A DNA stretch of 64,000 nt from an uncultured Oscillospiraceae bacterium (GCA_934630495.1 CAKTVW010000007.1:1828-65827); one strand, 5' to 3'; counted from the stretch's first letter, positions 3,824-23,543 are shown. Made by a program: numbers and translations. The notes: generated by a model from the sequence alone, not told the origin.

Positions 3824-3852
3824 AAACCGTTTTGTGCCGAAGCGCATAACTT

Positions 3853-5761: not shown

Positions 5762-7200
5762 GATGCGATCCTTTCTTCAACAAAGCGCTGCATCTCCTCC
5801 CGCGCAATGCAGTCGAAATGACGGCGCGGCTTCTGCGGCAGAGCGGCCAGCGCGGGAGGGATCGGTACGCCCGTCAGCGCCGACAGCCGTGCCATCACGG
5901 CAAATTCGTCGCCCGAGGCATCCTCCCCCAGTGCCGACAGCACAGCCGCCGGGAATTTATAGGGCGAAGCCGTCGAGAGCACCACGACGGGCGCGTCGGT
6001 CTGATACTGCTCCGCGACGCTCCAAGCCACAGCGGTATGCGTGTCCATCAGGTAACCGTGCTCGCGCCAGACGCGGCCGATGGTCCGCTTGGTCTGCGCG
6101 TCGTCGCAGCAGCCCCATGCAAATTCGGCATGGAGCCGCTCAAGCAGCGCGGGAGAGACGGTATAAACGCCGTCGGTGCTCAGGCGGCGCATGTATCCGG
6201 CCACCTCTTCGGGATCGCCGCAGAGCAGATACAGCAGCCGCTCCAGATTGCTGGAAACAAGAATGTCCATCGACGGCGAAAGCGTCTTGTAAAACGGGCG
6301 GCGGCGGTCGTAGGTGCCCGTGCGCAGGAAATCGGTAAGCACGTCGTTGGCATTGGACGCGCAGACGAGCTTTCCGACGGGCAGTCCCATGCCCTTAGCC
6401 AGATACCCCGCAAGAATATCTCCGAAATTTCCCGTCGGCACGACGTAATCCACGCGGTCGCCGTCCTTGATGCGCCCGCGCCGAAGCAGATCGGCGTAGG
6501 CCTTAAAATAGTAGACCACCTGCGGCGCAAGGCGGCCGATATTGATGGAATTGGCCGACGACAGGCGCACACCGCAGTTTTTCGGCGCACCGGCCGCAAA
6601 GATCGCCTTTACGCCCGTCTGGGTGTCGTCGAAATTTCCCTTGACCGCGCAGACACAGACATTCTCGCCCTCCTGCGTCACCATCTGCGCCTCCTGCACC
6701 CGCGAAACGCCGTCGGCGGGATAGAAGACGATGATGCGCGTACCGGGCACGTCGCGGAAGCCCGCCAGCGCCGCCTTGCCGGTGTCGCCGGAGGTCGCCG
6801 TCAGGATCAGGATCTCGTCGTCGATCCCCTCCTGCCGCCGCGCGGCGGTGATAAGCTGCGGAAGCATCGAAAGCGCCACGTCCTTAAACGCCGAGGTCGG
6901 CCCGCGAAACAGCTCCAGCACATAGCGATCACCGACCGGCACCAGCGGCGTCAGTTCGTCCGTCTCGAATTTTCCGGCGTAGGCGCGCCGCACAAGCTCG
7001 TGCATATCCTTGAAATCCGGCAGGAGCGCGGACAGGATCGCCTCGGCCATCCCCTGCGCGTCCATTTTCAGTATCGTCTCCCGGTCGATCCGAACGGGCT
7101 GCGACGCAACATACAGTCCGCCGTCGGGGGCAAGGCCCTGCAAAACTGCCTGCGTCGAGTCGGCGGTGACCGCCGCATTTCGGGTACTCTGATAGTTCAT
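5749..7200 (-). CDS. thrC: Threonine synthase (long form)
   Basis: ORF 5749..7356, trimmed to the ATG at 7200 (AAGGAG, 6 nt, ATG). MNYQSTRN..., with PLP-lysine context GPTSAFKDVAL. Confidence 0.88.
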   Translation of the reverse strand: MNYQSTRNAAVTADSTQAVLQGLAPDGGLYVASQPVRIDRETILKMDAQGMAEAILSALLPDFKDMHELVRRAYAGKFETDELTPLVPVGDRYVLELFRGPTSAFKDVALSMLPQLITAARRQEGIDDEILILTATSGDTGKAALAGFRDVPGTRIIVFYPADGVSRVQEAQMVTQEGENVCVCAVKGNFDDTQTGVKAIFAAGAPKNCGVRLSSANSINIGRLAPQVVYYFKAYADLLRRGRIKDGDRVDYVVPTGNFGDILAGYLAKGMGLPVGKLVCASNANDVLTDFLRTGTYDRRRPFYKTLSPSMDILVSSNLERLLYLLCGDPEEVAGYMRRLSTDGVYTVSPALLERLHAEFAWGCCDDAQTKRTIGRVWREHGYLMDTHTAVAWSVAEQYQTDAPVVVLSTASPYKFPAAVLSALGEDASGDEFAVMARLSALTGVPIPPALAALPQKPRRHFDCIAREEMQRFVEERIASWKK

Positions 7201-7487
7201 GTGCATCTCCTTAATTATAACGCATTGCGTCCGGTCCTGCGCCAACGGTTTCATGTGCGGCACGAGTTCGCTCTTTTTCCGCACCCGGAAGCCGCGCGGA
7301 GCCGGGATTTCCGTCTCTTTTTCTCCTCCGAGGCGGCAAAAAATGCGCCGCGGCAAGGCTTTCGGATGTTTTTCGGCACATTCAAAACTAATTCTTGCGT
7401 TTTTTCACACACTATGATATACTGTTTTTCAGAAAAATGCAAGTGTTTTTCTGGCGCGGACACTTGCTTGCAGAGGAAGGTAATATT

Positions 7488-8648
7488 ATGGAACAGAAAT
7501 GTCGGCCGATGCGGATCGCGCTGCTGGGACTGGGGACAGTCGGGCGCGGTGTTTATGACTACGTTACCGAGCGCAGCGACATGGAGCTTGCGTATGTAAT
7601 GAGTCTGACGCTGTTTGACGGCATCACCTGCCCCGTGGCAGACAATATCGAGCAGATCTTAGCCGACGACAGCGTTGACACCGTGATCGAGGTCATCGGC
7701 GGACTGCACCCGGCCTATGAATGGGTCACCGCCGCGCTGAAGGCGGGCAAAAACGTCATTACCGCCAACAAGCTCCTCATTGCGGCGCACTACCGCGAGC
7801 TGGTAGAGCTGGCGCAGGCAAACGGCGCCGCGCTGCGGTGCACGGCGGCGGCAGGCGGCGGCATCCCGTGGCTGACGGCGCTGGAGCGCACGCTGCATTC
7901 CGAGCCGATCGTCCGCATCAGCGGCATCATGAACGGCACGACGAATTTTATTCTCGACACCATGCACAGCTCCGGCGGCAGCTTTTCCGACGCCTTGGCC
8001 GAGGCACAGCGTCTGGGCTACGCCGAGCGCGACCCGTCGGCGGACATCAGCGGCGCAGACATCCGCCGCAAGCTGGTGATCTCGTCGAACATCGCCTACG
8101 GCCGCGTCATTGATGAAAATGAAGTCGACGTGTTCGGTATCGAGAGCATTACCGACCGCGACATCGCCGCTTTCCGCAGAATGCAGCGCGTATGTAAGCT
8201 GTTCGCGGCCTCCCGCCGACTGGAAAACGGCGTAGTCGCCTACATTGAGCCGACGCTGATGACCGCCGCCATGCCAGAATCCGCCATTCCGTCCAACAAC
8301 AATATCATTTCTCTGACGGGACGGCGCATCGGCAAGCAGAGCTTTTACGGCCAGGGAGCAGGTCGGTACCCCACGGCATATAATGTATTGCAGGACTGTG
8401 TGGACGTCAGCCGCGGCCTGCGCGGTTTTTACACCGATCGGCTGGAGCCGAGCTTTGTCGACAACAGCTCCGTCGAGCGGCAGTACTATGTCCGCACCAA
8501 CGGGATGGACAAATGGCTGCAATCGCGCGTTGACAAATTGCTGGATTGCGGTATAATAACTAAGGCTGTGTCTGTCAGCGAGATACATGCATGGGCACGG
8601 GAGCGCAAGGCCGCAGACTCCGGCTGCTTTATCGCCTCGCTGCGCTGA
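7488..8648 (+). CDS. hom: Homoserine dehydrogenase
   Basis: ORF 7395..8648, trimmed to the ATG at 7488 after GAGGAAGG. It has the LLGLGTVGRGVY nucleotide-binding N-terminus and sits next to aspartate kinase and asd. Confidence 0.85.
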   Translation: MEQKCRPMRIALLGLGTVGRGVYDYVTERSDMELAYVMSLTLFDGITCPVADNIEQILADDSVDTVIEVIGGLHPAYEWVTAALKAGKNVITANKLLIAAHYRELVELAQANGAALRCTAAAGGGIPWLTALERTLHSEPIVRISGIMNGTTNFILDTMHSSGGSFSDALAEAQRLGYAERDPSADISGADIRRKLVISSNIAYGRVIDENEVDVFGIESITDRDIAAFRRMQRVCKLFAASRRLENGVVAYIEPTLMTAAMPESAIPSNNNIISLTGRRIGKQSFYGQGAGRYPTAYNVLQDCVDVSRGLRGFYTDRLEPSFVDNSSVERQYYVRTNGMDKWLQSRVDKLLDCGIITKAVSVSEIHAWARERKAADSGCFIASLR

Positions 8649-8702
8649 TCGGTCGAATCGGACCGTGCGCAGCGGAAAACCGCGATATTTTAAGGAGAAA
8701 AT

Positions 8703-10016
8703 ATGTTAAAAGTTTTGAAATTCGGCGGGACGTCGATGGCAGACGCCGGCCAATACCGCAAGATTCGGGATATCGTCCGCAGCGACCCGTCCCGGAGGGT
8801 GGTGGTCGTGTCCGCCGCCGGCAAACGCTTCGACGGCGACAACAAGATCACCGACCTGCTGTATCTGTGCTACGCGCATCTGCAATACGGCGTGTCCTAC
8901 GACAGCATTTTTGAGATGGTCCGGCAGCGTTATTTTGCCATCCGCGACGAGCTGGGACTGAAAACCGATCTGGAAAAGGAATTTGCCGCGCTTACCGAGC
9001 AAATGAAGAACGGCATTTCCCGCGAAGAGCTGGTTTCGCGCGGCGAATATTTTTCCGCGCTGCTGATGGCGGAATTTTTGGGCTTTCCCTTTATCGACGC
9101 GACGCGCTGGCTGTTCTTCCGCTACGACGGAACGGTCGATCAGGAAAAGTCCTATGCCGCGCTGTCTGCGCTGGTGGGCGATTCCTGCGCGGTCATCCCC
9201 GGCTTCTACGGTCTGATGCCCGACGGCAAAATTCGCACGCTGACCCGCGGCGGCTCGGATATCACGGGCGCATTGGCGGCAGCCGCGCTGGACGCCGACG
9301 TATATGAAAACTGGACGGACGTTTCCGGCATTCTGATGGCCGATCCGCGCATCGTCGATCATCCCAAGACCATCGACCGCGCCACCTACAGCGAGCTGCG
9401 CCAGCTCTCCTACAGCGGCGCGCAGGTCCTACATGAAATGACCGTTTTTCCCGTGCGGGAAAAGAACATACCTCTGAACATCCGCAACACCAACGAGCCG
9501 GACCATCCCGGCACGCTGGTTTCCGAGGAATTTCGCGACGCGCCGAACAATCAGCGCTTCATCACCGGCATCGCCGGCAAGAAGGACTTTTCCATCGTTA
9601 CCATCTCCAAAAAGGGCATGGCCGGGGCAGTCGGAACGCTGCGCGCGATCGTCGAGGTCTTTGAAAAAAACACCGTCCCGATCTGCTATACCCCGACGGG
9701 CATTGACTGCATCTCGCTGGTCGTCCCGACGGAGAAGCTGACGCCGCATCTCTATTCCGTCACCGACGATCTGCGCAAGAGCGTCAGTCCGGACAGCATC
9801 AAGATCACCGACAACATCTCCATTGTCGCCGCCGTCGGCCGCAAAATGGCCTTCCGCGCGGGCACGTCGGGCAAGATCTTCGCGGCGCTGGGGCAGCAGG
9901 GCATCAATATCCGCATGATCTCGCAGGGGCCGGATGAGCTGAACATTCTCGTCGGCGTGGACAACAAGGACTACGCCGCGACCATCCGCGTGCTCTACGA
10001 CGCGTTTGTAAAATGA
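8703..10016 (+). CDS. Aspartate kinase
   Basis: 437 aa. MLKVLKFGGTSMADAG kinase signature and a C-terminal ACT-like region. Confidence 0.88.
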   Translation: MLKVLKFGGTSMADAGQYRKIRDIVRSDPSRRVVVVSAAGKRFDGDNKITDLLYLCYAHLQYGVSYDSIFEMVRQRYFAIRDELGLKTDLEKEFAALTEQMKNGISREELVSRGEYFSALLMAEFLGFPFIDATRWLFFRYDGTVDQEKSYAALSALVGDSCAVIPGFYGLMPDGKIRTLTRGGSDITGALAAAALDADVYENWTDVSGILMADPRIVDHPKTIDRATYSELRQLSYSGAQVLHEMTVFPVREKNIPLNIRNTNEPDHPGTLVSEEFRDAPNNQRFITGIAGKKDFSIVTISKKGMAGAVGTLRAIVEVFEKNTVPICYTPTGIDCISLVVPTEKLTPHLYSVTDDLRKSVSPDSIKITDNISIVAAVGRKMAFRAGTSGKIFAALGQQGINIRMISQGPDELNILVGVDNKDYAATIRVLYDAFVK

Positions 10017-10073
10017 TCCCGAACGGCGGGCAGGACCGCGCCGTTTCGGAAACGCTGTAATGAGGTGAAAATT

Positions 10074-11078
<1,005 letters not shown>

Positions 11079-11133
11079 GCGTACGCAACAAAACACAACG
11101 TAAAAGCATAACGTAAATGCATAACGCCAAAAG

Positions 11134-11164
11134 AAAGGCCGGGAAATATTCCCCGGCCTTTTCG
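11134..11164. terminator. Bidirectional terminator between the convergent asd and plsX-like genes
   Basis: AAAGGCCGGG-loop-CCCGGCCTTTT hairpin flanked by A and T runs. Confidence 0.6.
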
Positions 11165-11186
11165 CTATATTTCGTTCGGCGCAGAG

Positions 11187-12167
11187 TCAGCGCTTTTCCT
11201 GTCGGAAGCAAGCCTCAAAGCGTTCGGTAAGTCGGTTTTCTCCCAGCTCACAGGCGCGGAGGATCAGATTCTCGATCGTCTCCCCGGTCGCAGCGCCGTG
11301 TCCCTTCATGACCAGCGGCTTGACACCCAGCAGCAGTGCGCCGCCCTGCGTGTTATAGTCGTATTTCTTCCGAATTTCGGTGAGCAGGCATTCTGTCTCG
11401 CCGTTTTTTTGCGGCAGACGCTGCGTCAGCTCATCCAAGACGGCCTTTGCCGTTCCCTCGATGGCCTTCAGCAGAATATTCCCCTGAAAGCCGTCGCAGA
11501 CGATCACATCCGTATCGCCCGAAAGCGCACGGTTTGCCTCGACGCTGCCGATAAAATTGAGCTTGGTCTGCCGAAGCAGCTCCGTCGCCGCTTTGACCGT
11601 TTCGCTGCCCTTCGTCTCCTCGACGCCGTTCGAGAGCAGCGCGGTGCGCGGCGCTTCACAGCCGAGCGCCCGCATATACGCACTGCCGACGCGGGCAAAG
11701 CTGACAAAATGCTCCGGGCGGCATTCGGTATACGCGCCGCAGTCGAGCAGGCAGAGCGGCTCGCCGTGCGCAGTCTTCAACTGACTGAGCAATACGGGGC
11801 GCATTCCGCGAATCTTGTCCAAAAGCATGATCGCACACACAAGGATCGCGCCGGTCGCGCCGCAGGTAACGACGCCCGCGACCTCCGGCCGCTCTCTGCA
11901 AAGGCGAAACGCCTTGACGAGTGACGCGTCGCGCCGCAGATAGGACTGCATCGGGTCGTCCAGATTGGTGATCGCGTCGGGCGCGTCCACAGCCTCATAG
12001 CGGCCCGCGCATGCGGGTATTTCTCCGAGGATGCCGTTGATCGTTTCGCTGTGGCCGAAAAGATACAGAAACAGATCTCCGCGTCTGCGCAGAGCCGCCG
12101 CAGCGCCGCGGCAAAGCTCCGCCTCGGGGCGGTCCGCGCCGAGCAGATCGACTGCCAAACAGATCAT
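11187..12167 (-). CDS. PlsX-like phosphate:acyl-ACP acyltransferase (divergent paralogue)
   Basis: ORF trimmed to MICLAVDLLGADRPE (ATGA overlap with the upstream gene). PlsX-type motifs LLDCGAYTECRPEH and DGFQGNILLK are present. The N-terminal GGD motif is degenerate (GAD). Confidence 0.7.
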   Translation of the reverse strand: MICLAVDLLGADRPEAELCRGAAAALRRRGDLFLYLFGHSETINGILGEIPACAGRYEAVDAPDAITNLDDPMQSYLRRDASLVKAFRLCRERPEVAGVVTCGATGAILVCAIMLLDKIRGMRPVLLSQLKTAHGEPLCLLDCGAYTECRPEHFVSFARVGSAYMRALGCEAPRTALLSNGVEETKGSETVKAATELLRQTKLNFIGSVEANRALSGDTDVIVCDGFQGNILLKAIEGTAKAVLDELTQRLPQKNGETECLLTEIRKKYDYNTQGGALLLGVKPLVMKGHGAATGETIENLILRACELGENRLTERFEACFRQEKR

Positions 12168-12910
12168 AAAAATTCCTCCCAGTGCTCCGTGCGCCGCTGC
12201 CAGACCCGTTCCAAGATCGTTCGGTAGACCTCCGGCGAAAACGGCGGCTTCGTCAGGCCGCACAGCGTTTCCTCCGTCAGACGGCCCTGCGCCGCAAATT
12301 CTTTTCCTGCCTCGGTAAAGCGGGCAAGCCGCCGTGCCAGTCTGCCGCCGCCCATTTCCACAAGGGTCATAAGCTGCGGACAGGTCACGGCGGTATAGCG
12401 CCCCCTGCCGAAGATCAGATCAAGCTGCGCAAGCAGCGCATCGAATACTCGGTCCGACTCGGTATAGGCACAGCCGGAGATCAAAACGAACCTCTGTTCC
12501 GGTCGGTCATAGCGCGGGGCGTGCGCCGGACGGCAGGCAGGCGGGACCTCGTGTCCCCGGTAGGTTTGCAGCATCGACAGCATACGGTCGACAAATACCT
12601 TGACCTGCCCGGGCATCCCGAAAAAGTAGAGCGGGAAGCTTGCGATCACCACATCGGCATCGAGCAGCTTCCGCTTCATTTCCGCGGCGTCGTCGTTCTG
12701 AATGATGCAGGAGCCTTCCGTTCGGCTCCAGCAGGAAAAGCAGCCCCGGCACGGCGTAATGTGCAGGGAGGCGATCGCGACCGTTTCCGTTGCCGCTCCG
12801 GTCGCCTCGCAGAGTCCCGCCGTGAAGGCCTCGGCGACGGTCAGGGTGCTGCTGTGCTCCTTTCTGGGGCTGCCGTTGAGGAGCAGAACACGCGTCGGTT
12901 TTTTCATCAT
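12164..12910 (-). CDS. Flavodoxin-like fold NAD(P)H-dependent FMN reductase family protein
   Basis: MMKKPTRVLLLNGSPRKEHSST..., CRGCFSCW, and VIASFPLYFFGMPGQ. This is the Isf/NADPH-dependent FMN reductase pattern. Confidence 0.65.
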   Translation of the reverse strand: MMKKPTRVLLLNGSPRKEHSSTLTVAEAFTAGLCEATGAATETVAIASLHITPCRGCFSCWSRTEGSCIIQNDDAAEMKRKLLDADVVIASFPLYFFGMPGQVKVFVDRMLSMLQTYRGHEVPPACRPAHAPRYDRPEQRFVLISGCAYTESDRVFDALLAQLDLIFGRGRYTAVTCPQLMTLVEMGGGRLARRLARFTEAGKEFAAQGRLTEETLCGLTKPPFSPEVYRTILERVWQRRTEHWEEFL

Positions 12911-12926
12911 AGCCGGCTCACCCATC

Positions 12927-13859
12927 TTACACCGCACAGACCGTCAATTCCCGCACCGTCTGCCGCAGAGAAGCGGCGTCATTGACCGTAAAGGCGCGCG
13001 CATCGGGAAGCGTGCGGCGGACGAAGCCCGTCAGGGCCGAGCCTGCGCCGACCTCGACAAAGGTATCGACACCGTCGTTTTCGAGATTTCGGAGCGTTCT
13101 TTCCCATAAAACGGGAGACGCGGCCTGCATACAGAGCGTTTCGGCGCGGGCAGCCGCGTCGTCGGGATAGGGCAGAGCGGTTCGGTTGGCATAGACGGGG
13201 ATTCGGGGCGTTTGCAGCGGGTGCTCCGCCAAAAAGCCGCGCAGGATCCCCGCCGCCTCCAGCATATAGGGCGTGTGGAACGCGCTGCCGACGGGAAGCC
13301 TGACCGCGCGGCCGCCCGCCTCCTTGACCGCCGCACAGAACGGTCCGAGCAGGTCGGTATCGCCCGCACAGACGATCTGCCCGGGGCAGTTATAATTCAC
13401 GGGCCAGACGGCGGAAAATTCGGCGCAGAGCCGTTCGACCGTTTCCGCGTCCAGCTTGAGCGCCGCGACCATGCCGCCGGGGTGCCGCTCGGACAGCTTG
13501 GCCATCGTCTCGCCGCGCAGCAGCGTCAGGCGAAACGCGTCCTCCGCCGAGAGCATCCCCGCAAATGCGGCGGCAGGCAGCTCTCCGAGGGAGAATCCCG
13601 CGGCCGCGTCCGGTACGATCCCCTCCTGCCGCAGTGCTTCGGCAATGGCCAGATCGGTCAGGAACAGGCAGGGCTGCGTATTTTCGGTCTTCATCAGCTC
13701 GCCCGGATCGCCGGAAAAGCACATCGCCTTCACGCCGGGACGGATCGCCTCGCCCATGGCATAGACGGCCTTGGCAGCGGCATTCTCCGCCTCTAAGTCC
13801 ATGCCCATGCCGACGCGCTGACTTCCCTGCCCCGCAAACAAAAATGCAAGCTTTCCCAT
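12927..13859 (-). CDS. fabD: Malonyl-CoA:ACP transacylase
   Basis: 310 aa with FLFAGQGSQRVGMG and the active-site GFSLGE. Confidence 0.88.
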   Translation of the reverse strand: MGKLAFLFAGQGSQRVGMGMDLEAENAAAKAVYAMGEAIRPGVKAMCFSGDPGELMKTENTQPCLFLTDLAIAEALRQEGIVPDAAAGFSLGELPAAAFAGMLSAEDAFRLTLLRGETMAKLSERHPGGMVAALKLDAETVERLCAEFSAVWPVNYNCPGQIVCAGDTDLLGPFCAAVKEAGGRAVRLPVGSAFHTPYMLEAAGILRGFLAEHPLQTPRIPVYANRTALPYPDDAAARAETLCMQAASPVLWERTLRNLENDGVDTFVEVGAGSALTGFVRRTLPDARAFTVNDAASLRQTVRELTVCAV

Positions 13860-13860
13860 A

Positions 13861-14316
13861 CTACGCCTCCGCGCCGCCGTCGAGCGTTTTTCTTTCCAGC
13901 GCGGTAAAGGACAGCGTGCCCTTCGCGCGGCACTCGCCCGCGACGGTCACGACCGCGTCAAAGCTGATGAGCGGCCCGCCGCGGCTTTTTTTTGTCACGG
14001 TAATATCCATCGTGTCTCCGGGGAGCACGGGCTTCAGGAATTTAAAGCCGTCCAGCTTCAAAAGCACATACAGCTTGTCCTCCTCCGTTTCCGAAGCATC
14101 CACGGTCAGAGAGCAGAGCTGTGCACAGCTCTCCGCGATCAGTACACCGGGAAGGATGGGCGTTCCCGGAAAATGTCCGGCAAACCACGGATCGTTGATC
14201 GAAACGGTCTTGTGCCCTACGGCACGTTCGCCCGCCTCATACTCCGATATGCGCTCGATCATCTGAAACGGCGGCCGCTGCTTCAGGCGGCGGTCGACCT
14301 CGTAAATATTCATCAT
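13861..14316 (-). CDS. fabZ: 3-hydroxyacyl-ACP dehydratase (FabZ-type hot-dog)
   Basis: Only the C-terminal 151 aa of track ORF 13861..15150 are genuine. MMNIYEV...PPFQMIERI...GHFPGTPILPGVLIAES. ATGA overlap with fabG. Confidence 0.85.
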   Translation of the reverse strand: MMNIYEVDRRLKQRPPFQMIERISEYEAGERAVGHKTVSINDPWFAGHFPGTPILPGVLIAESCAQLCSLTVDASETEEDKLYVLLKLDGFKFLKPVLPGDTMDITVTKKSRGGPLISFDAVVTVAGECRAKGTLSFTALERKTLDGGAEA

Positions 14317-15044
14317 AGGGACAGTCCTCCGTCCAGCGTCAGAATTTGTCCGGTCATATAGGAGCAGGCGTCCGACGCCAGCAGCGAGACCAGTCCTGCG
14401 ACCTCCTCGGCCGTGCCCAGACGGTGCATGGGGATCGCGTTCAGATATTCTTCCTTCTTTTCCTGCGGAAGCGACTGAAGCATATCCGTCTCGATAAAGC
14501 CGGGTGCAACGGCGTTGACGCGGATGCCGTAGGGCGCAAGCTCCTTCGCCATCGTCCGCGTCAGGGCGTTGACCGCGCCCTTCGTCGCGCTGTAGACGCT
14601 CTGCCCGGGCAGGGCAAAGGTCCCGCTGACGGACGAAATATTGACGACGGCGCCGCACTTGCGGCGGAACATCTTCAAGACCGCCTGCTGTGCGCAGTAG
14701 ATATAGCCCTTGACATTCAGGTCCATGCAGTCGTCGAGCGTTTTTTCCTGCACCATCAGCAGATATTCGTCGCGGACGATCCCGGCGTTGTTCACCAGCA
14801 GATCGAGCTGTCCGAAGCTCTTGACGACCTCGCGCATCATAGTCTTTACGGCGTTCGGGTCGGACACGTCGGCCTGACACAGCATTCCTCGGCCGCCCTC
14901 GGCCTCGATCAGCCGCAGGACCTCCTCCGCCTCGGACGCATTGTGCGCATAGTTTACCGCGACGGCGTAGCCGTCTCTTGCCAGCCGCAGCGCACAGGCG
15001 CGGCCGATCCCCCGGGAAGCCCCGGTCACTAATGCAGCTTTCAT
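14313..15044 (-). CDS. fabG: 3-oxoacyl-ACP reductase (SDR)
   Basis: 243 aa with TGASRGIGRA and the catalytic S...YSATK. Confidence 0.85.
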   Translation of the reverse strand: MKAALVTGASRGIGRACALRLARDGYAVAVNYAHNASEAEEVLRLIEAEGGRGMLCQADVSDPNAVKTMMREVVKSFGQLDLLVNNAGIVRDEYLLMVQEKTLDDCMDLNVKGYIYCAQQAVLKMFRRKCGAVVNISSVSGTFALPGQSVYSATKGAVNALTRTMAKELAPYGIRVNAVAPGFIETDMLQSLPQEKKEEYLNAIPMHRLGTAEEVAGLVSLLASDACSYMTGQILTLDGGLSL

Positions 15045-15053
15045 ATTGCCTCC

Positions 15054-17417
15054 TCAGCGTGCAAGGATCACGGCGGTATACGAGCCGCCGGAGCCGTAGG
15101 AGATCACAAGGATGCGGCCCAGCCCGTCCGCCTCGACGGCGCACTTGCACAGCTTGCCGTCAACGCGGCGGTAGGCGTCGGCCTCCGCGCTCAGATCGCC
15201 GTGCAGCAACAGCGCGGCATGGGCAAGCCCCAACGCAGCGGCCGCGGCGCGGCCCTCGCCCACGCGCTCCTTGACAGAAAGCACGGGGATGCTGCCGAAC
15301 ATCGCCGAGATCGTCTCCGTCTCGATCGTGTCCACGGCCTTGCAGCCGTTGGCAAAGCCGATCACGGCGTCGATCTCTTCCGGCTTCAGACCGCCGTCAC
15401 GCAGCGCCTCGTCTATCGCCGCGCGAAGCGCCTCGGCAGAGCCGGTCAGCGTACCGAAGGGAACGCTGTCGTGCGCCGTGCCGCAGCCGCAGACGCGGCA
15501 GTAGACCTCCGCGTTTCTCGCGGCGGCGTTTTCCCGCGATTCCAGCACGAGCGTGACGCTGCCGTCGGAGAGCGGGAAGCCGGAGCCTTCGGAATAGGGC
15601 TTCACAGCCTCGTCTGCAACGAGGCCGAGCGTACCGTAAAGCTCCGAGAGGATTTCGTTGTTTTCGTCGCTGCCGGAGACCAGCATTGCGTCCGCGCGGC
15701 CGCTTTGCAGCACGTTTACGGCATATACCGCGCTTTGCAGTCCCGACTGTGCGCCGTTGGTCACGGTAACGCTGTAGCCGCGGATACCCGCGCAGATGGA
15801 AAGATAGCCGCCTGCGGCGTTGTAGACCGTGTTGGGGAATTTAAAGGCGCTGCCCGCCGCGTTGCCCTTTTCGGCGATCATTTTCTGAAAATCACAGCTC
15901 GGGCCGAGCGCTCCCTCCGAGGTACCGACGGCGATGCCGATACGCTCGGCGTTGCCTTCGTCGACCGTCAGGCCGCTGTCGTGCAGCGCAGCCAGACCGG
16001 AAACGGCCTGAAGCTGGCTGAAATGATCCAGCTTGCGGTAAAACGCCATTTTCAGCCCTACGCTGCCCAACTCCTCCGCACCGACATGAGAAGCGGCGCT
16101 TCCCGTGCAGATGCGCTCCTCGGCCTTACAGGCTTCTATGTAGCGCGTTTTCCCGCTGCCCAGCGGCGTCACAAGGCCCATGCCGGTGAGCACGATCTCC
16201 TTTTTCCCGGAGACGGACGGAGCATTCTCCCGCTGCTTGCCGAACACGATGCTTGCGTTGTTCCCGCCGAAGGCAAAGGAATTGCTCATGACATTCGTAA
16301 GCTCTTTGGAAACGGGCACATTCGGGCAGAAATCCATCTCCCCGGCTCTTTGTACCAAAAGCTCCATGTCCTCCTGCCGATAGCCGAGCGTCGGCGGCAT
16401 GCAATTCTCCGTCAGCGCCTTGACGGTAAACACCGCCTCGATCGCGCCCGCCGCACCGAGGCAGTGTCCGGTCATCGCCTTGGTAGAGCTGACACCCGGT
16501 GTGCCGTGTACGGGATCAAAGATCGTATGCAAAGAGAGAAACTCCGCCTCGTCGTTTTTGGCCGTTCCGGTGCCGTGCGCGTTGATATAGTCGATATCGG
16601 CGGCGTTCAGGCCGGAATCTGCGATGGCGGCGCGGATCGCAGCGATCTGCCCTGCACCGTCCGGCCGCGGCGCGGTGATATGAAAAGCGTCGCTGCTGAC
16701 GCCCGCGCCGAGCACCTCGCAATAAATTTTCGCGCCGCGTGCCTTCGCATGCTCATAGGATTCTACAATCAGCGCGCCCGCGCCCTCGCCCAGCGTAATG
16801 CCGTGCGAACGGTTAAAGGGCGAGCAGGGGCCGTCCTCAAGCGCATGGAGCGACAGGAAGCCCGCATACGGCACCGGCGAAAACGCATCCGCGCCGCCCG
16901 CGACGACGATATCCGCCCTGCCCGCGCGGATCAGATCGCAGGCATAGGCAATGCTGATCGTACCGGCGGCGCAGGCGTTGGCGATATTTGTGACCGTTCC
17001 GCCCGCATGGCAGAGCGCGGCGGCATGATTGGCAAGCGCGGAGATCGGCATATTAAGGACGTTCTCGCGGCTTTTCTCTTCGGTATAATACTTTTCAATG
17101 CTCTTGCCGCCGCCCACGCAGCTCCCCATGATTACGCTCGCCCGCCGATCGCCGTTAAAATCCTCTACGGTGGCGTCGGAAAGCGCTTCTCTGACCGCGC
17201 TCAGACACAGCGCGACGGTGCGGTCCTCCCCGTTCTCGGGGAAGTCCGCAATCTCGGCGGAATAATCCGTATAGCAATTCTCCGTGTTCACGGTGGCCGT
17301 GCGGCCGATCCCGCTCTTAGACGCCAGAATGCTCTGCCAGCACTCCGGGAGAGAACGGCCGATGGCGCTGACGACACCCAGCCCCGTGATTACGCATCTG
17401 TTTTTATCCTGCGTCAT
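15054..17417 (-). CDS. Fused ketosynthase / chain-length-factor-like protein (KS-CLF didomain)
   Basis: About 787 aa. The N-terminal half is a complete KAS I/II-type KS (ANACAAGT Cys, HITAP His, NAHGTGT His). The C-terminal half is KS-like but has Gln in place of the active Cys (VTNGAQSGL) and lacks the catalytic His (GFANGCK). Start set at the ATG at 17417. Confidence 0.8.
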   Translation of the reverse strand: MTQDKNRCVITGLGVVSAIGRSLPECWQSILASKSGIGRTATVNTENCYTDYSAEIADFPENGEDRTVALCLSAVREALSDATVEDFNGDRRASVIMGSCVGGGKSIEKYYTEEKSRENVLNMPISALANHAAALCHAGGTVTNIANACAAGTISIAYACDLIRAGRADIVVAGGADAFSPVPYAGFLSLHALEDGPCSPFNRSHGITLGEGAGALIVESYEHAKARGAKIYCEVLGAGVSSDAFHITAPRPDGAGQIAAIRAAIADSGLNAADIDYINAHGTGTAKNDEAEFLSLHTIFDPVHGTPGVSSTKAMTGHCLGAAGAIEAVFTVKALTENCMPPTLGYRQEDMELLVQRAGEMDFCPNVPVSKELTNVMSNSFAFGGNNASIVFGKQRENAPSVSGKKEIVLTGMGLVTPLGSGKTRYIEACKAEERICTGSAASHVGAEELGSVGLKMAFYRKLDHFSQLQAVSGLAALHDSGLTVDEGNAERIGIAVGTSEGALGPSCDFQKMIAEKGNAAGSAFKFPNTVYNAAGGYLSICAGIRGYSVTVTNGAQSGLQSAVYAVNVLQSGRADAMLVSGSDENNEILSELYGTLGLVADEAVKPYSEGSGFPLSDGSVTLVLESRENAAARNAEVYCRVCGCGTAHDSVPFGTLTGSAEALRAAIDEALRDGGLKPEEIDAVIGFANGCKAVDTIETETISAMFGSIPVLSVKERVGEGRAAAAALGLAHAALLLHGDLSAEADAYRRVDGKLCKCAVEADGLGRILVISYGSGGSYTAVILAR

Positions 17418-17425
17418 AGGAAGAA

Positions 17426-17668
17426 TCAGACGTGGCTGCAAACATACGCGGCAAGCGCGTCGATATTGCGGAAGTTTTCCTTGTCCGCGCCGGTCATGGA
17501 AACGCCGTATTCCTCGTCGATCGCAGAGATGATCTCCAAAGAATCGATGGAATCCAGTCCGATGCCCTCACCGAACAGGACGGTGTCATATTCCAGTCCC
17601 TCCGGCTCAATGCCGAGGCGCTCGCAGAGCATATCCTTGATCTTTGCCTTTACTTCCGTTGCGTTCAT
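17426..17668 (-). CDS. Acyl carrier protein
   Basis: 80 aa from the ATG at 17668 (AAAGGAGAAACACT ATG). Phosphopantetheine-attachment context GLDSIDSLE. Confidence 0.85.
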   Translation of the reverse strand: MNATEVKAKIKDMLCERLGIEPEGLEYDTVLFGEGIGLDSIDSLEIISAIDEEYGVSMTGADKENFRNIDALAAYVCSHV

Positions 17669-17922
17669 AGTGTTTCTCCTTTTGTCTTTATTCGGGCACG
17701 TTCCGCGCGGTGCGCGGAGGCCCCCCCCGACCGATCGACTCGGCTCTCCGTCCGACACGCAGACGAATGCGGACGTCCGGTCGTCCTGAGCCGTTGATCC
17801 GAAACGGCGGTCAGTCTATTTTATTATATTCAAAACCACAGAAATTGCAAGAGGATAGCGCCCTCTTCGGTCAAAAAACGTCGAACTGCGGCAATTTTCG
17901 GAACTGCGGCACGCTCCTTCTC

Positions 17923-19140
17923 CTACAGCGTCAGGCCCAGCGTCAGGATCCCCAGATTTTTGGCATATATTTCGTCGAACTGCTCCGGCGGCAGCGGGTT
18001 TTCGCCGTGTCCCACCTCGATCGTATAGCCCGGTCGGTCAAAGTCCTGAATAAACCAATCCTTATAGCCCGCAAAGCCCGAGGCGAACGGCGTATCCTCC
18101 AGCGTATAGCCGCTCACGCGGGCAAATTCCTCGCCGATCTCCCGCGCGTTTTCCGGCTCGAGATCCATGAATTTCCAGTAGATCACCTCGCCCTGCGAAT
18201 GGTAGGACAGTGTCAGCCGCGGGGCGACCCGCCGCGTCAGCCGCGCCATCGCCGCGCTCTCCGGCTGGTCCAGCGGCGCATCGCCCACATAGTCGCGCGG
18301 TGCAGGCCCGACAAAACCGAGCGCGAATTTGTTTTCCCGCGCCTGTTCCCAGCCGGCCGGATAATTCAGATTCAGGTCGACGCCCTCCAAATTCGCCTTC
18401 CAGCCGCTCGGGAACGGGATAAAGGGATAATACGCGCCGATGAGCTGGGCGACCTCATACTGTGTGCTCCCCGGCTCGATCGCGCCGGTCACAAGATCGA
18501 CGCCGTCCGGATTGACCATCGGCACAAGGTAGAGCTGTGTGCGCCGAAACAGCCGCCGCGCGTTTTCTCCGAAGATCTCGCCGTTTTCGGAGATCGCCCG
18601 CGCGTAGTCCTCCAAGAATTTCATCAGCACGGGCGTCGTGATCCATTCGTTTGCATGGTGGCTTGCATTGTACAGCACGGAGTGCATCCCCGTGCCGAGC
18701 TTCAGCAAGCGGACGCTCCGCCCGTAGGCCGTCGTCGCGATCCCCTGCTCCGTCAGGAACGGATATCGCGCCAGCAGGCCCTGTATGCAGATCTGCAGCA
18801 GCTCTGAGGTAAACGGAAGATCCGTCGGCACGACCGGAAAACCGAACGGCACGATCAGGTACTGTCCCGCTCGGAGGCGCGTCGGGTCGGCGTTCGGATT
18901 TGCCGTTTCGATCGCGTTCACCGTCGTGTCGTACTGCCGCGCGATCCGGTAAAAGGTATCGCCGGGTTTGATCATGTAGCGCTCATACCCGAGAAGGTAC
19001 GGACTGAGGCGCTGCATCGTCAGAATGTCCTCCCGGCCGGACGGATACAGCCCCACGCGCCGCTGAAAGTCTTCCAGATCGGTCGCCCCGGCGCGCCGCA
19101 GGGCAAGCTCGGTATAATTCAAAACGATCCCCTCCGGCAC
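17923..19140 (-). CDS. LysM-domain M14 metallopeptidase (gamma-D-glutamyl-meso-DAP peptidase-like)
   Basis: 405 aa. LysM segment YMIKPGDTFYRIARQYDTTVNAIETANP and Zn-carboxypeptidase motif SHHANEW. Confidence 0.75.
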   Translation of the reverse strand: MPEGIVLNYTELALRRAGATDLEDFQRRVGLYPSGREDILTMQRLSPYLLGYERYMIKPGDTFYRIARQYDTTVNAIETANPNADPTRLRAGQYLIVPFGFPVVPTDLPFTSELLQICIQGLLARYPFLTEQGIATTAYGRSVRLLKLGTGMHSVLYNASHHANEWITTPVLMKFLEDYARAISENGEIFGENARRLFRRTQLYLVPMVNPDGVDLVTGAIEPGSTQYEVAQLIGAYYPFIPFPSGWKANLEGVDLNLNYPAGWEQARENKFALGFVGPAPRDYVGDAPLDQPESAAMARLTRRVAPRLTLSYHSQGEVIYWKFMDLEPENAREIGEEFARVSGYTLEDTPFASGFAGYKDWFIQDFDRPGYTIEVGHGENPLPPEQFDEIYAKNLGILTLGLTL

Positions 19141-20461: not shown

Positions 20462-21322
20462 ATGGCAAAAATCGGACTTGTCCTGTCCGGCGGCATGGCC
20501 AAGGGGGCCTATCAGATCGGCGTGCTGAAGGCGCTGTCGGAATATCTGTCGCCCGCCGAGATTGATCTGACCAGCGCTTCCTCGATCGGCGTTCTGAACG
20601 CATACGCTTTCCACACGGGAAAGCTGGACTTTGCCACCGAGCTTTGGAAGCTTTCCGCCATGGACGGCAGCCGCCGCGTTATCACCTCCATGCTTCGCAG
20701 CACCTTCCTGCAATCGTCCATCGCCAATCTTTACAGTCCCTCCGATGCGCTGCAATCGGAGCTGTATCTCTCGCTTTACAATTTTTCCAAAAATCATCTG
20801 TCCTATGTGGAGCTGTCCAAGCAGCCGCAGACGCAGTATGTCGACTATCTCCGTGCCAGCGTCTGTATGCCGCTGTATAACCGCGCGGTCGTATTGGGGC
20901 AGGATAAATTCTTCGACGGCGCAATGATCGACAATATTCCCATGCTTCCTCTGGTCCAGCACAAGCCGGACTATGTGATCTGCGTCTACTTCGACAGTGA
21001 AAACTACATATTTGAGAATCGGGAATTTGACCGCCGCGTGGTAAAGATCACCTTCCCCGACGACAAGATTATCGCCACCTCGGTGTTCTTCAAGCCCGAC
21101 AGCGTGGAATATATGATCGCGCAGGGCTATGACTACGCCAAGGAGCTTTTTGCCAAGCTGTTTGCCAACGGAAAGGATGATCTTCCGCATATCTATCAGG
21201 AGATCGCACGGCTGAATGTTCTCTCCGCACAGCGTCCCTTCCGCATTACCGGCGATATCATGGTCCGAAATCTGAACAAGGTCACGCAGAAGCTGACGCG
21301 GAGACGGCGGATCATCGGCTGA
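20462..21322 (+). CDS. Patatin-like phospholipase
   Basis: The ATG at 20462 follows GGAAGGAG. Has the GLVLSGGMAKGAYQIG oxyanion motif, GxSxG (ASSIG) and DGA (FDGAMIDN). Confidence 0.8.
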   Translation: MAKIGLVLSGGMAKGAYQIGVLKALSEYLSPAEIDLTSASSIGVLNAYAFHTGKLDFATELWKLSAMDGSRRVITSMLRSTFLQSSIANLYSPSDALQSELYLSLYNFSKNHLSYVELSKQPQTQYVDYLRASVCMPLYNRAVVLGQDKFFDGAMIDNIPMLPLVQHKPDYVICVYFDSENYIFENREFDRRVVKITFPDDKIIATSVFFKPDSVEYMIAQGYDYAKELFAKLFANGKDDLPHIYQEIARLNVLSAQRPFRITGDIMVRNLNKVTQKLTRRRRIIG

Positions 21323-21413: not shown

Positions 21414-21488
21414 GCGGGTGTAGTATAACGGCTAGTACAACAGCCTTCCAAGCTGTGGGCGTGGGTTCGATTCCCATCACTCGCTCCA
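21414..21488 (+). tRNA. tRNA-Gly (UCC)
   Basis: 75 nt. Cloverleaf with anticodon loop CTTCCAA, GGTTCGATTCC T-arm, and CCA encoded. Confidence 0.9.
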
Positions 21489-21491
21489 TAC

Positions 21492-21568
21492 GCGCCAGTA
21501 GCTCATCCGGATAGAGCAACTGCCTTCTAAGCAGTAGGTGGGGGGTTCGAGTCCCTTCTGGCGTACCA
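21492..21568 (+). tRNA. tRNA-Arg (UCU)
   Basis: 77 nt. Acceptor GCGCCAG/CTGGCGT, anticodon loop CTTCTAA, and CCA encoded. Confidence 0.88.
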
Positions 21569-21611
21569 CCTGCGTCAGCGTCGGTGATTGGCTGATGCTT
21601 TGCGGTACGCC
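21555..21611 (+). repeat. 57-bp direct repeat, copy 1 (last 14 nt of tRNA-Arg plus 43 nt downstream)
   Basis: CTTCTGGCGTACCACCTGCGTCAGCGTCGGTGATTGGCTGATGCTTTGCGGTACGCC, identical to 21699-21755. Confidence 0.9.
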
Positions 21612-21698
21612 CTGATCGAAGTTCGCCTTATGGCTCCTTCTCTCAGGAAGGGACTTTGCGGCGGGAAAAAATGTCACCGGCATCTTTTCCCTTGCAAA

Positions 21699-21755
21699 CT
21701 TCTGGCGTACCACCTGCGTCAGCGTCGGTGATTGGCTGATGCTTTGCGGTACGCC
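21699..21755 (+). repeat. 57-bp direct repeat, copy 2 (orphan tRNA-Arg 3' end)
   Basis: Perfect copy of 21555-21611, lying 87 bp downstream of copy 1. Confidence 0.9.
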
Positions 21756-21850
21756 TTGAAATACCTGATGACGGCAAAGCATCGGCATTGTGCGGTCCGC
21801 CGCACGGCAAAGACGCGCCACAAAAGCGTTTTTGCATGGGAACGAAATAT

Positions 21851-21928
21851 GGTGGGTGTAGCGTAGTTGGTTAACGCGTCAGATTGTGGCTCTGAAGACC
21901 GAGGGTTCGAGTCCCTTCACTCACCCCA
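21851..21928 (+). tRNA. tRNA-His (GUG) with encoded G-1
   Basis: 78 nt. Extra 5' G pairs with C73. Anticodon loop TTGTGGC. Confidence 0.9.
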
Positions 21929-21963
21929 TTTCCCCCCAATCCCTTTATTCGGGGCTGCCACAT

Positions 21964-22038
21964 TGGGATGTCGCCAAGTGGTAAGGCACCAGACTTTGAC
22001 TCTGGCATCCGTAGGTTCGAGTCCTGCCATCCCAGCCA
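21964..22038 (+). tRNA. tRNA-Gln (UUG)
   Basis: 75 nt. TGGGATG...CCAGACTTTGACTCTGG...CATCCCAGCCA. Confidence 0.9.
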
Positions 22039-22041
22039 AGT

Positions 22042-22078
22042 CGGAGCAAAGTCCGCTTTGCTCCGATTTTTATTTTTT
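22042..22078 (+). terminator. Rho-independent terminator of the tRNA cluster
   Basis: CGGAGCAAAG-TCCG-CTTTGCTCCG followed by TTTTTATTTTTT. Confidence 0.7.
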
Positions 22079-22221
22079 GCTATGCAAAAGCATAGCAAAA
22101 TAAGAAATGTGCCGTTTCCTCGTCCCTGCGGGGCATCCGGAAATGATGCACAAAAGCTTCATGCACCGGCATTTGCACTTTTTCGTGGCGCAGCACACAT
22201 GCATGAGGTTTTATGACGTAC

Positions 22222-22297
22222 GACCCGCTAGCTCAGCAGGCAGAGCAATTGCCTTTTAAGCAATGGGTCTGGAGTTCGAATCTCCAGCGGGTCACCA
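22222..22297 (+). tRNA. tRNA-Lys (UUU)
   Basis: 76 nt. Anticodon loop CTTTTAA and acceptor GACCCGC/GCGGGTC. Confidence 0.9.
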
Positions 22298-22299
22298 AT

Positions 22300-22336
22300 C
22301 CTCCGAAAACGCAGCGTTTTCGGAGGATTCTCTTTT
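22300..22336 (+). terminator. Terminator after tRNA-Lys
   Basis: CCTCCGAAAACG-CAG-CGTTTTCGGAGG followed by a T-rich tract. Confidence 0.65.
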
Positions 22337-22440
22337 GTGTATGCACATGCGGCTTCCCCGCGCATCGACTCGGGCACTGCAAAAAACGCCGGTGCCGAGA
22401 ATAACCCCGACCCCGGCGTTTCTTGCGGCGGTCCGCTTTT

Positions 22441-22487
22441 AACCGAAAAGAAATGAGGCTTCGCAGCGTCTGCTGTGAAGCCTCATT
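22441..22487 (-). terminator. Terminator after tRNA-Trp
   Basis: 11-bp stem AATGAGGCTTC/GAAGCCTCATT, followed on the minus strand by TTCTTTTCGGTT. Confidence 0.6.
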
Positions 22488-22489
22488 CT

Positions 22490-22565
<76 letters not shown>

Positions 22566-22580
22566 ATATTAAAAATAAAA

Positions 22581-22657
22581 TGGTGGGCCTTCGGGGACTC
22601 GAACCCGGGACCGTCCGGTTATGAGCCGGATGCTCTAACCAACTGAGCTAAAGGCCC
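22581..22657 (-). tRNA. tRNA with CAU anticodon, most like lysidine-type tRNA-Ile2 (elongator Met not excluded)
   Basis: 77 nt. GGGCCTTTAGCTCAGTTGGTTAGAGC...GGCTCATAACC... resembles Firmicutes tRNA-Ile(CAU). It lacks initiator features: the 1:72 pair is intact and there is no triple G-C in the anticodon stem. Confidence 0.75.
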
Positions 22658-22918: not shown

Positions 22919-23428
22919 TTACCGTTTTTTCCTTGTCAGCACGATCCCGACGACCGAACCGGCAACAATCAGAGGGGCCAGCCGCACAAACAGGTATTCA
23001 AAGGCATGAAAAGCCGCGCCGAAAACGGCAGTCTCCGGGTCGGCATAGTTCCAAGCAAGGTAGGGACTCTTACAAACCAGCAGCGCGGCAAAAACTGCGG
23101 CCGTGCCCGCGCACAGCGCGATAAACAGCCAATGCAGCGCGTTTCTTCTCGCGGCTTTCCTCCTTGCAAGCTGTAGGTTGATAACCTCCAGCTTTTCGGA
23201 GAGCTTTTTCAGATCATCCGGTCTCGATTCGGCTACAGTCTCTCCGAGCAGCGTGCTCACAGGCGTTTCAAGCGCCTCCGAGATGGAGATGAGCATATCC
23301 GAATCGGGAACGGACAGGCCCTGCTCCCATTTGGAGACGGTCTGCCGCACAACATTCAGCCTGACGGCAAGCTCCTCCTGCGAAAGCCCTTTCGACTTTC
23401 TGAAGGCTTTTATGTTTTCATTCAGCAT
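22919..23428 (-). CDS. XRE-family HTH regulator with C-terminal transmembrane segments
   Basis: Trimmed to MLNENIKAFRKSKGLSQEELAVRLNVVRQTVSKWEQG (HTH_3). Hydrophobic C-terminal half. Confidence 0.75.
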   Translation of the reverse strand: MLNENIKAFRKSKGLSQEELAVRLNVVRQTVSKWEQGLSVPDSDMLISISEALETPVSTLLGETVAESRPDDLKKLSEKLEVINLQLARRKAARRNALHWLFIALCAGTAAVFAALLVCKSPYLAWNYADPETAVFGAAFHAFEYLFVRLAPLIVAGSVVGIVLTRKKR

Positions 23429-23543
23429 CGGGACAACTTCCTTTCTTTCGGTCGCTGTCCATATTATATACGAACCGAAGCCGTTGCCGCAAGCAACGCA
23501 GATTAACATGCCGCGTTACGAACAGTTTCAATCCTCTCTCACG

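Follow-up and report, generated by a model that had tools for sequence, protein, structure and literature searches.

Canonical type II fatty acid synthesis (FASII) in clostridia is encoded in the order plsX-fabH-fabK-fabD-fabG-fabF(-fabZ) or acp-accBCDA-fabH-fabK-fabD-fabG-fabF-fabZ, and FabH together with the enoyl-acyl carrier protein (ACP) reductase (ER) are the steps most pursued as antibiotic targets, for example, by FabI/FabK inhibitors and in narrow-spectrum strategies against C. difficile. The known ER families (FabI, FabL, FabV, and FabK) include no flavodoxin-fold enzyme, and the word "flavodoxin" is absent from a 2022 review of bacterial enoyl reductases. Fatty acid synthesis can also be started without FabH, as by FabY in P. 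aeruginosa. Further precedents for such FabH-independent initiation are MadA (PMC8666670) and the FabB of P. putida (PMC10869286). From gut clostridia, a flavodoxin/WrbA-like, flavin mononucleotide (FMN)-dependent ene-reductase with a C-terminal tail has been described (flavone reductase, FLR), which acts on the C2=C3 bond of an enone, reducing it without direct use of NAD(P)H (PMC7862272). Here, we analyse a seven-gene operon from a 64-kb stretch of DNA of an uncultured Oscillospiraceae bacterium (hereafter the window, that is, all of the stretch, the rest of the genome lying outside view), in which a ketosynthase (KS) is fused to a dead copy (KS-KS') and is accompanied by a flavodoxin-fold protein (Fld). 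The system is best described as a variant of type II fatty acid synthesis that combines a fused, putatively priming and elongating ketosynthase with a candidate for a new ER class and is widespread in uncultured gut and rumen anaerobes. Literature searches found no paper describing it, in agreement with the original prediction (made from the sequence alone), which knew of no characterised counterpart.

The operon and its fused ketosynthase

Genes were called from a table of open reading frames (ORFs) together with Pfam and NCBIfam scans of the window proteins. Seven co-directional minus-strand genes with strong family matches encode an ACP, KS-KS', a ketoreductase (KR), FabZ, FabD, Fld, and a PlsX-like protein, with the following features:

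17823-17850, minus: promoter-like site TTGCAA-16 nt-TATAAT, by consensus match the sole sigma-70-like site on this strand in 10900-18100
17426-17668, minus: ACP, 80 aa, with the phosphopantetheine-attachment serine in DSIDS (PF00550 PP-binding, E=5e-13)
15054-17417, minus (ORF 15054-17441): fused KS-KS', 787 aa, two ketoacyl-synt N+C domain pairs
~16230-17417, minus: N-half of KS-KS', active FabF-like KS
15054 to ~16229, minus: C-half of KS-KS', inactive KS copy
14313-15044, minus: FabG-like 3-ketoacyl-ACP reductase, the KR (adh_short_C2, E=3e-68)
13861-14316, minus: FabZ-type 3-hydroxyacyl-ACP dehydratase (DH; PF07977, E=4.5e-24; NF000582, 118 bits, cut-off 113)
12927-13859, minus: divergent FabD, malonyl-CoA:ACP transacylase (PF00698 Acyl_transf_1, E=6e-43)
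12164-12910, minus: Fld, flavodoxin-fold FMN protein, proposed ER (PF03358 FMN_red, E=1.5e-16; PF02525 Flavodoxin_2)
11187-12167, minus: divergent PlsX, acyl-ACP:phosphate acyltransferase family (PF02504 FA_synthesis, E=7e-61)
11133-11162, both strands: bidirectional intrinsic terminator separating the operon from the convergent asd gene (11-pair hairpin with 7 G-C pairs, T-runs on both strands)

These genes form one minus-strand operon that extends from the promoter-like site at 17850-17823 to the terminator at 11133-11162. ATGA overlaps join the KR stop to the FabZ start (14313-14316) and the Fld stop to the PlsX start (12164-12167), 8-nt and 16-nt gaps are found at other junctions, and the ribosome-binding site AAAGGAG precedes the ACP ATG at 17668, so that the tight coupling proposed in the original prediction is borne out. 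The single promoter-like site, which presumably acts as the promoter, lies ~150 nt upstream of the ACP start. The G+C-rich leader of ~150 nt between the two (17669-17822, minus strand) matched no Rfam family at the gathering threshold and could hold a regulatory element, for example, an operator of the FabT/FapR type.

No match to FabH, FabK, AccA-D, or a second ACP was obtained anywhere in the window by tblastn with queries from related loci (the FabH query being that of locus L017), and FabH is likewise absent from the Pfam scans of the window proteins. Nor does the window encode an ER of a known family, be it of the short-chain dehydrogenase/reductase (SDR) type (FabI/L/V) or the TIM-barrel type (FabK), its sole SDR being the FabG-like KR; the earlier statement that FabH and all known ER families are missing from the operon thus stands and extends, together with the absence of FabI/K and acc genes, to the whole 64 kb. 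ACP, malonyl transacylase, KR, DH, an elongating KS, and PlsX (plus Acc in sister loci) are common to this operon and to canonical clostridial FASII, from which it differs by the lack of FabH and FabK/I/L/V, by the fusion of the KS to a dead copy, and by the added, putatively Fe-S-binding flavodoxin-fold protein. It falls outside canonical bacterial FASII by having neither FabH in the operon or the window nor a known-family ER in the window, and also by its scores, as the FabF, FabG, FabD, and AcpP counterparts all remain below their NCBIfam equivalog cut-offs and FabZ alone passes (NF000582).

The individual components nevertheless carry the motifs of their families. All related KS-KS' genes are preceded by an ACP gene whose product shares 53-80% identity with the window ACP, which itself lies below all NCBIfam AcpP cut-offs (38 versus 70). 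The KR contains the NADPH-binding motif GASRGIG and the Ser/Tyr/Lys triad (TIGR01830, 268 bits versus a cut-off of 298; in L017, 252 for the related KR versus 335 for the adjoining canonical FabG), and the DH the motif HFPGxPxxPGVLxxES. According to its translation, FabD retains GQGSQ, the GFSLGE serine, the malonyl-carboxylate Arg, and the AFHT histidine (TIGR00128, 225 bits versus a cut-off of 261; canonical FabD of L017, 300), while KS-KS' reaches 466 bits against the TIGR03150 fabF cut-off of 494 (canonical KS, 583). Canonical counterparts in L017, L062, and L078 pass the equivalog cut-offs. The PlsX-like protein can be aligned from end to end with B. subtilis PlsX (1vi1, E=1.6e-45) and with 6a1k, and scores 207 bits against a cut-off of 29 for Pfam FA_synthesis, but 211 against 243 for TIGR00182, compared with 360-365 for canonical clostridial PlsX. 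Its divergence had been noted before, as had the motifs LLDCGAYTECRPEH and GAD in place of GGD, all of which we find. By sequence, it is a member of the FA_synthesis family, an assignment that does not imply functional equivalence; plausibly, it links the product to membrane lipid synthesis. A PlsX occupies the same position in L001, L006, and L089.

Translation of KS-KS' probably starts at the ATG at 17417, since homologues begin with MTxxxNRCV; this gives 787 aa, as in a 97%-identical relative (P0001). The N-half has its catalytic residues intact (Cys157, His289, and His326) and keeps the FGG gate. When the C-half is aligned to E. coli FabF, by contrast, Cys163 is replaced by Ala (Ala564), His303 by Phe, and His340 by Glu, and it is therefore regarded as an inactive partner, as CLF (the chain length factor) is. 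This confirms the earlier view of an active KS fused to an inactive partner, the pairing that characterises type II polyketide synthases (PKSs). CLFs typically carry Gln for Cys, a replacement tied to decarboxylative priming; here, judged from the alignment, Ala564 sits at the Cys position and Gln, conserved in at least 90% of the sequences, directly after it (Gln565).

In searches against solved structures, the N-half is closest to FabF (~1e-70), followed by Iga11 (1.5e-56), ApeO (1.2e-44), and the actinorhodin KS-alpha (5e-41). The heterodimeric KS pair 9s5h_B/C, formally the top match of the N-half, scores barely above ordinary FabF, and as no source paper was found for it, it was not used. 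The best matches of the C-half are likewise FabF, both in the PDB (8e-31) and in NCBIfam (TIGR03150, 142 bits), which places it outside the CLF sequence clade; solved CLFs match more weakly (actinorhodin CLF, 3.5e-12; AntE, 6.7e-13), and Iga12 and ApeC are not among the 60 C-half matches listed. In a neighbour-joining tree of fused-KS N-halves, C-halves, and canonical FabF, the N-halves form one clade that is sister to canonical FabF, and the C-halves form a clade of their own outside FabF, whose internal topology is congruent with that of the N-halves; this congruence points to one ancient fusion followed by co-divergence. The possibility, raised at the outset, that the C-half groups with ordinary FabF accordingly holds for the best database matches and fails in the tree.

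The operon thus resembles the type II PKS pairs Iga11/Iga12 and ApeO/ApeC in combining an active KS and a catalytically dead partner with a dedicated ACP, KR, and DH, and the KS-CLF didomain of PfaC/HglC in its fusion order (KS then CLF, as in PfaC). It differs from these KS-CLF systems in a C-half nearest to FabF, with Ala at the Cys position and Gln next to it, and in the conserved flavin reductase and the acc genes that accompany the core. With MadA/YiiD of E. coli, FabB of P. putida, and FabY it would share a start without FabH, via malonyl-ACP decarboxylation or a KAS I/II-type enzyme; those are, however, separate proteins in Proteobacteria, whereas the candidate primer here is a KS fused to a degenerate KS in Firmicutes.

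Fld and the related gene clusters

Fld contains a compact cysteine motif, C53-x2-C56-x2-C59-x7-C67 (CRGCFSCWSRTEGSC), all four cysteines of which are invariant in 37 aligned sequences, as is a fifth, Cys146. The family alignment also reveals the FMN phosphate loop NGSP and an FPLYFFGMP segment. A compact CX2CX2CX4-7C motif is the [4Fe-4S] signature of Isf-type iron-sulfur flavoproteins, and as Fld combines it with an FMN_red fold, it is Isf-like in this respect, the binding of a cluster being predicted. An AlphaFold (AF2) model of Fld (pLDDT 92.5) retrieved FMN-dependent two-electron reductases of the AzoR/NQO type as top Foldseek matches (TM scores ~0.55-0.6) and shows an extra C-terminal helical domain of ~70 residues. 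PDB entries 1tik and 1t5b, titled "ACP phosphodiesterase", are presumably AzoR under an old misnomer and were given no weight. With Isf and AzoR/NQO-type reductases, Fld thus shares the FMN_red/Flavodoxin_2 fold and, in the case of Isf, the compact Cys motif, but is set apart by its helical domain, its fifth Cys, and its strict embedding in FAS-like operons. No homology to FabX or FabK was detected by Pfam or Foldseek, the fold being that of flavodoxin and not a TIM barrel.

The best PDB sequence match of Fld is FLR (7d38, E=2.9e-6), limited to residues 34-109 (~76 residues). The two have in common a flavodoxin/WrbA-like fold, a C-terminal extension, and a Cys-rich loop region, and FLR reduces the C=C bond of an alpha,beta-unsaturated carbonyl, which is ER-type chemistry. 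On the other hand, the relation is remote, and FLR has 310 aa, a different tail, flavone substrates, and no link to ACP genes. Full-length similarity is absent, also over the C-terminal substrate tail of FLR, which places Fld outside the FLR type; by analogy, FLR is a precedent for the chemistry and the fold and not for membership.

Homologues of the fused KS fall into more than 2,400 clusters at 90% identity, each of ~790 aa (one cluster alone holding 6,345 member sequences). Almost all stem from metagenome-assembled genomes (MAGs) of uncultured Clostridiales/Eubacteriales, Ruminococcus, Lachnospiraceae, Erysipelotrichaceae, Acholeplasmatales/Anaeroplasma, and Treponema, and none of the ten protein clusters inspected bears the name of a cultured species. 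A scan of a genome collection with the KS fusion gave closest matches of 63% identity. For comparison of gene neighbourhoods, we considered 22 distinct related loci that are not cut by a contig end, and Fld accompanies the core ACP-KS-KS'-KR(-DH) in all of them, in MAGs of Clostridia, Lachnospiraceae, Erysipelotrichaceae, Acholeplasmatales, and Treponema; two Fld proteins that were looked up independently both reside in such clusters as well. The flavodoxin-like gene, initially treated as a bystander, hence turns out to be the most faithful companion of the KS-KS'/KR/DH core. The clusters occur in the following architectures:

Type A (window, L001, L005, L006, L089; L008 similar): core-FabD-(AccD-AccA)-Fld-PlsX
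Type B (L010, L012, L090): core-Fld-ACP2-AccB-AccC-AccD-AccA-FabD-BirA, with BioY adjacent
Type C (L002-4, L009, L011, L013-16, L022, L023, L085-88): (patatin)-PlsC-like acyltransferase-core-(Sfp-type phosphopantetheinyl transferase (PPTase))-Fld-(acyl-ACP thioesterase)
Type D (L017-19): ACP-KS-KS'-KR-Fld, then directly fabH-fabK-fabD-fabG-fabF-fabZ

The genomes behind some of these loci are GCA_964325715.1 (L001), CADBQV01 (L010), JAFSJY01 (L012), and GCA_051874325.1 (L090). The window operon differs from the other type A loci solely in having no AccD-AccA. In type B operons, each function for de novo FAS is encoded once, with the exception of FabH and an ER of a known family, and none of the known ERs is found within 10 kb of them. 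Their second ACP gene lies between Fld and accB (L010:4866-5096, L012:8106-8351, and L090:11714-11944). The type D module, which has no DH of its own, derives from rumen and buffalo Oscillospiraceae/Ruminococcaceae MAGs (L017:9748-19460, L018, and L019), and its ACP may serve both systems, since no acpP is present between fabH and fabK. In unrelated lineages, the module is repeatedly accompanied by a PlsC-like acyltransferase and a patatin-like phospholipase, the latter often with DUF6363, and patatin genes flank it in L002-4 (L002:9113-10803), L008 (795-2296), L011, L013, L015, and L016; this recurrence suggests phospholipid deacylation/reacylation, i. e., remodelling, with the product of the module.

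The most similar fused KS from a cultured organism, that of Clostridium hydrogenum CUEA01 (L021:9717-17067; 783 aa, 36% identity), was rejected as part of the same system. Its gene follows that for an ACP, and an unannotated protein of 370 aa and a radical SAM enzyme are encoded downstream. KR, DH, and Fld are missing from this cluster, which looks like a different, uncharacterised ACP-dependent pathway.

A profile search with Fld returned 416 proteins at E<1e-30, many of them fusions to a GDSL lipase or to SCP2, in the latter case partly with a membrane domain as well. A family of ~535 aa that is widespread in cultured anaerobes combines the 4-Cys flavodoxin domain with an SCP2 lipid-binding domain and a multi-span membrane domain, and is annotated as azoreductase or WrbA; in Caproiciproducens sp. 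NJN-50 (L092:6453-8623) and Oceanirhabdus seepicola (L094:6450-8614), it forms a two-gene unit with a PadR regulator. The SCP2- and GDSL-fused homologues were dismissed as a link to acyl chains, as they represent a paralogous subfamily with stand-alone contexts, and they offer a weak hint that the wider Fld family handles hydrophobic substrates. P0237, considered as an AccA-Fld Rosetta-stone fusion, was likewise rejected and is attributed to a deletion or an assembly artefact because the first ~75 residues of Fld, with the FMN loop and the Cys motif, are missing.

Proposed fatty-acyl synthesis and its rivals

Judged by sequence, the operon may well encode a self-contained, FabH-independent type II fatty-acyl synthase in which Fld acts as the enoyl-ACP reductase and the product passes to PlsX, a reading that we hold with middling confidence. 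FabD would place malonate on the dedicated ACP, and KS-KS' would both prime and elongate, priming proceeding through decarboxylation of malonyl-ACP to acetyl-ACP, as KS-beta/CLF, FabB, or FabF can perform. Ketoreduction by the FabG-like KR and dehydration by FabZ would follow, and the resulting trans-2-enoyl-ACP would be reduced by Fld, with electrons flowing from NAD(P)H or reduced ferredoxin via the [4Fe-4S] cluster to FMN. Finally, PlsX would turn the finished acyl-ACP into acyl-phosphate as the substrate for PlsY-dependent synthesis of phospholipids. Within this scheme, what we infer is that Fld has ER activity and that KS-KS' primes, as well as which donor supplies the electrons and how long and how saturated the product chain is. 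More tentatively, and somewhat short of an even chance, Fld may represent a fifth, structurally unrelated class of enoyl-ACP reductase that together with KS-KS' makes up a complete FASII without FabH or FabI/K/L/V and serves as the main FAS both in abundant, uncultured Firmicutes of gut and rumen and in certain lineages of Acholeplasmatales, Erysipelotrichaceae, and Treponema.

Fatty acid synthesis is favoured because KR, DH, and the N-half of the KS are FAS-like and FabD keeps the malonyl Arg as well as the catalytic Ser and His. Since two missing functions are matched by two extra parts, KS' and Fld appear to stand in the slots of FabH and FabK. That only the ER should have been omitted is unlikely in view of type B, which, FabH and a known ER apart, has each FAS function, four acc subunits, and a biotin ligase, plus Fld in the middle of the operon. 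The clusters moreover close with genes whose products can draw off fatty acyl-ACP, namely, PlsX, PlsC-like acyltransferases, or an acyl-ACP thioesterase. Further points in favour are the company of Fld in all 22 loci, its FMN and Cys motifs, its AzoR/NQO-like fold and its distant kinship with FLR, and the FabH-independent precedents MadA and P. putida FabB. Several observations weigh against this reading. In type D, the module lies directly upstream of a full canonical fabH-fabK-fabD-fabG-fabF-fabZ set, so that Fld is not needed there as the only ER and the module is accessory. In many loci, a patatin, a PlsC-like acyltransferase, and an Sfp-type PPTase of the cluster's own are present, as would be expected of a specialised lipid pathway sooner than of housekeeping FAS, and type C suggests a second, specialised acyl chain that is put into phospholipids by remodelling. 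The window components other than FabZ score below equivalog cut-offs, which fits paralogues as well as displaced orthologues, and the conserved Gln of KS' lies one residue past the Cys position and not at it. Fld is weakly similar to FLR, and its fold is one that quinone and azo reductases have in general. In addition, the Fld-SCP2-membrane paralogues stand alone in 3/3 loci examined (a PadR regulator adjoining in 2/3), so that the wider Fld family is not limited to ACP substrates.

The original prediction concluded from the lack of an ER that the operon is a highly reducing type II PKS of the polyene kind. On this view, KS-CLF, KR, and DH would run through repeated cycles without enoyl reduction, so that the chain carried by the dedicated ACP becomes a polyene or is unsaturated in some other way; PlsX or acyltransferases would move this chain into lipids, and Fld would be a tailoring or redox accessory. 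The set of KS, inactive KS, KR, DH, and dedicated ACP indeed matches the aryl-polyene (APE) and ishigamide systems, many related loci add an Sfp-type PPTase and a PlsC-like acyltransferase as APE clusters do, the sub-threshold scores of all window components but FabZ fit a non-housekeeping role, and the DH has weak ApeI/ApeP-like Pfam matches. A polyene PKS would, however, be recognised by the absence of any enoyl-reducing enzyme, and although no known ER is present, Fld, with its FMN-reductase fold and 4-Cys motif, is conserved with the core as strongly as KR and DH, unlike an optional tailoring gene. Primary metabolism is indicated by the accBCDA, fabD, birA, and bioY genes within the operons, genes for a starter unit (aryl-CoA ligase or ammonia lyase) are absent, and the module of L017-19, having lost its DH, would need the housekeeping FabZ. 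KR, DH, and the N-half are also nearest to FabG, FabZ, and FabF and not to polyene-PKS enzymes, the N-half being closer to FabF than to Iga11/ApeO and the C-half closer to FabF than to any solved CLF. A polyene PKS therefore no longer leads and appears quite unlikely to us.

It is unlikely, too, though deserving of thought, that the ER acts in trans (a FabK or FabI encoded elsewhere in the genome) and that Fld has another redox role in lipid metabolism, either as an electron-transfer partner or as a FabX-like acyl-ACP dehydrogenase/isomerase that would make cis-unsaturated chains anaerobically together with a FabB-like KS-KS'. Helicobacter FabX is an FMN and [4Fe-4S] enzyme, module and FabK are joined in one operon in L017-19, and the SCP2-fused Fld paralogues act outside FAS clusters. 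A dedicated enzyme for unsaturated fatty acids was, according to a 2009 paper, still unidentified in Clostridia at that time (PMC2700279). Yet the flavodoxin fold of Fld is unrelated to FabX and FabK, a branch for unsaturated fatty acids needs no ACP, KR, DH, FabD, Acc, and PlsX of its own, and the self-sufficient, acc-containing type B operons with no known ER within 10 kb would go unexplained. Elongation or salvage of exogenous fatty acids, in which PlsX running in reverse would load acyl-phosphate (supplied by a fatty acid kinase) onto ACP for extension by KS-KS'/KR/DH/Fld, would need no FabH, as reverse PlsX would load the chains. In its favour, PlsX is reversible and teams up in Enterococcus with a second ACP when exogenous fatty acids are used; the PlsX of the window type is divergent and peculiar to these clusters, and two ACPs occur in some operons. 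We nonetheless judge this route highly unlikely, as PlsX is confined to one of four cluster architectures, no fakA/fakB (DegV) genes are found in the window, and the acc and fabD genes suit de novo synthesis equally; salvage is, besides, compatible with fatty-acyl synthesis by Fld and KS-KS' and not exclusive of it.

Should Fld prove to be an ER, intrinsic insensitivity to inhibitors of FabI and FabK would be expected in a large block of the Firmicutes of gut and rumen, and FASII annotation pipelines would be labelling their genomes "ER-less". In strict anaerobes, an Fe-S-coupled ER could furthermore connect lipid synthesis with ferredoxin. Were the product a specialised one, the clusters would still represent a very widespread, uncharacterised lipid pathway of the gut microbiome.

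Genomic surroundings

The GC content across the operon region is uniform (0.59-0.64). On one side, the operon is flanked by dapF, thrB, thrC, hom, an aspartate kinase gene, and asd, and on the other by genes for a LysM/M14 peptidase, an ArAE/FUSC protein, and a patatin-like protein. As the neighbours are housekeeping genes and the GC content is uniform, the locus is assigned to the chromosomal core and not to an island. The aspartate-family genes constitute a compact amino-acid gene set at 4024-11078 (dapF, a thrB-like GHMP kinase gene, thrC, and the genes for homoserine dehydrogenase, aspartate kinase, and asd) that converges on the terminator of the operon. The patatin gene lies 2.8 kb upstream of the operon:

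20465-21322, plus: patatin-like phospholipase (PF01734, E=4e-16)

It may be associated with the operon, a link that is weak in the window because two unrelated genes stand between them.

Further along the stretch, positions 1-4000 have a GC content of 0.45, compared with ~0.60 elsewhere, and this segment, which ends at a tRNA gene (3753-3823) and contains a 256-aa ORF (2780-3550) with no Pfam match, may represent foreign DNA that has integrated. At 21414-22657, seven tRNA genes lie clustered, with both strands represented, followed by a gene for an HTH_3/phage CI-like repressor (22919-23509). Lastly, a ribosomal protein L10 leader (Rfam RF00557, 67 bits) is located at 56701-56825 on the minus strand, upstream of apparent rplJ and rplL genes.

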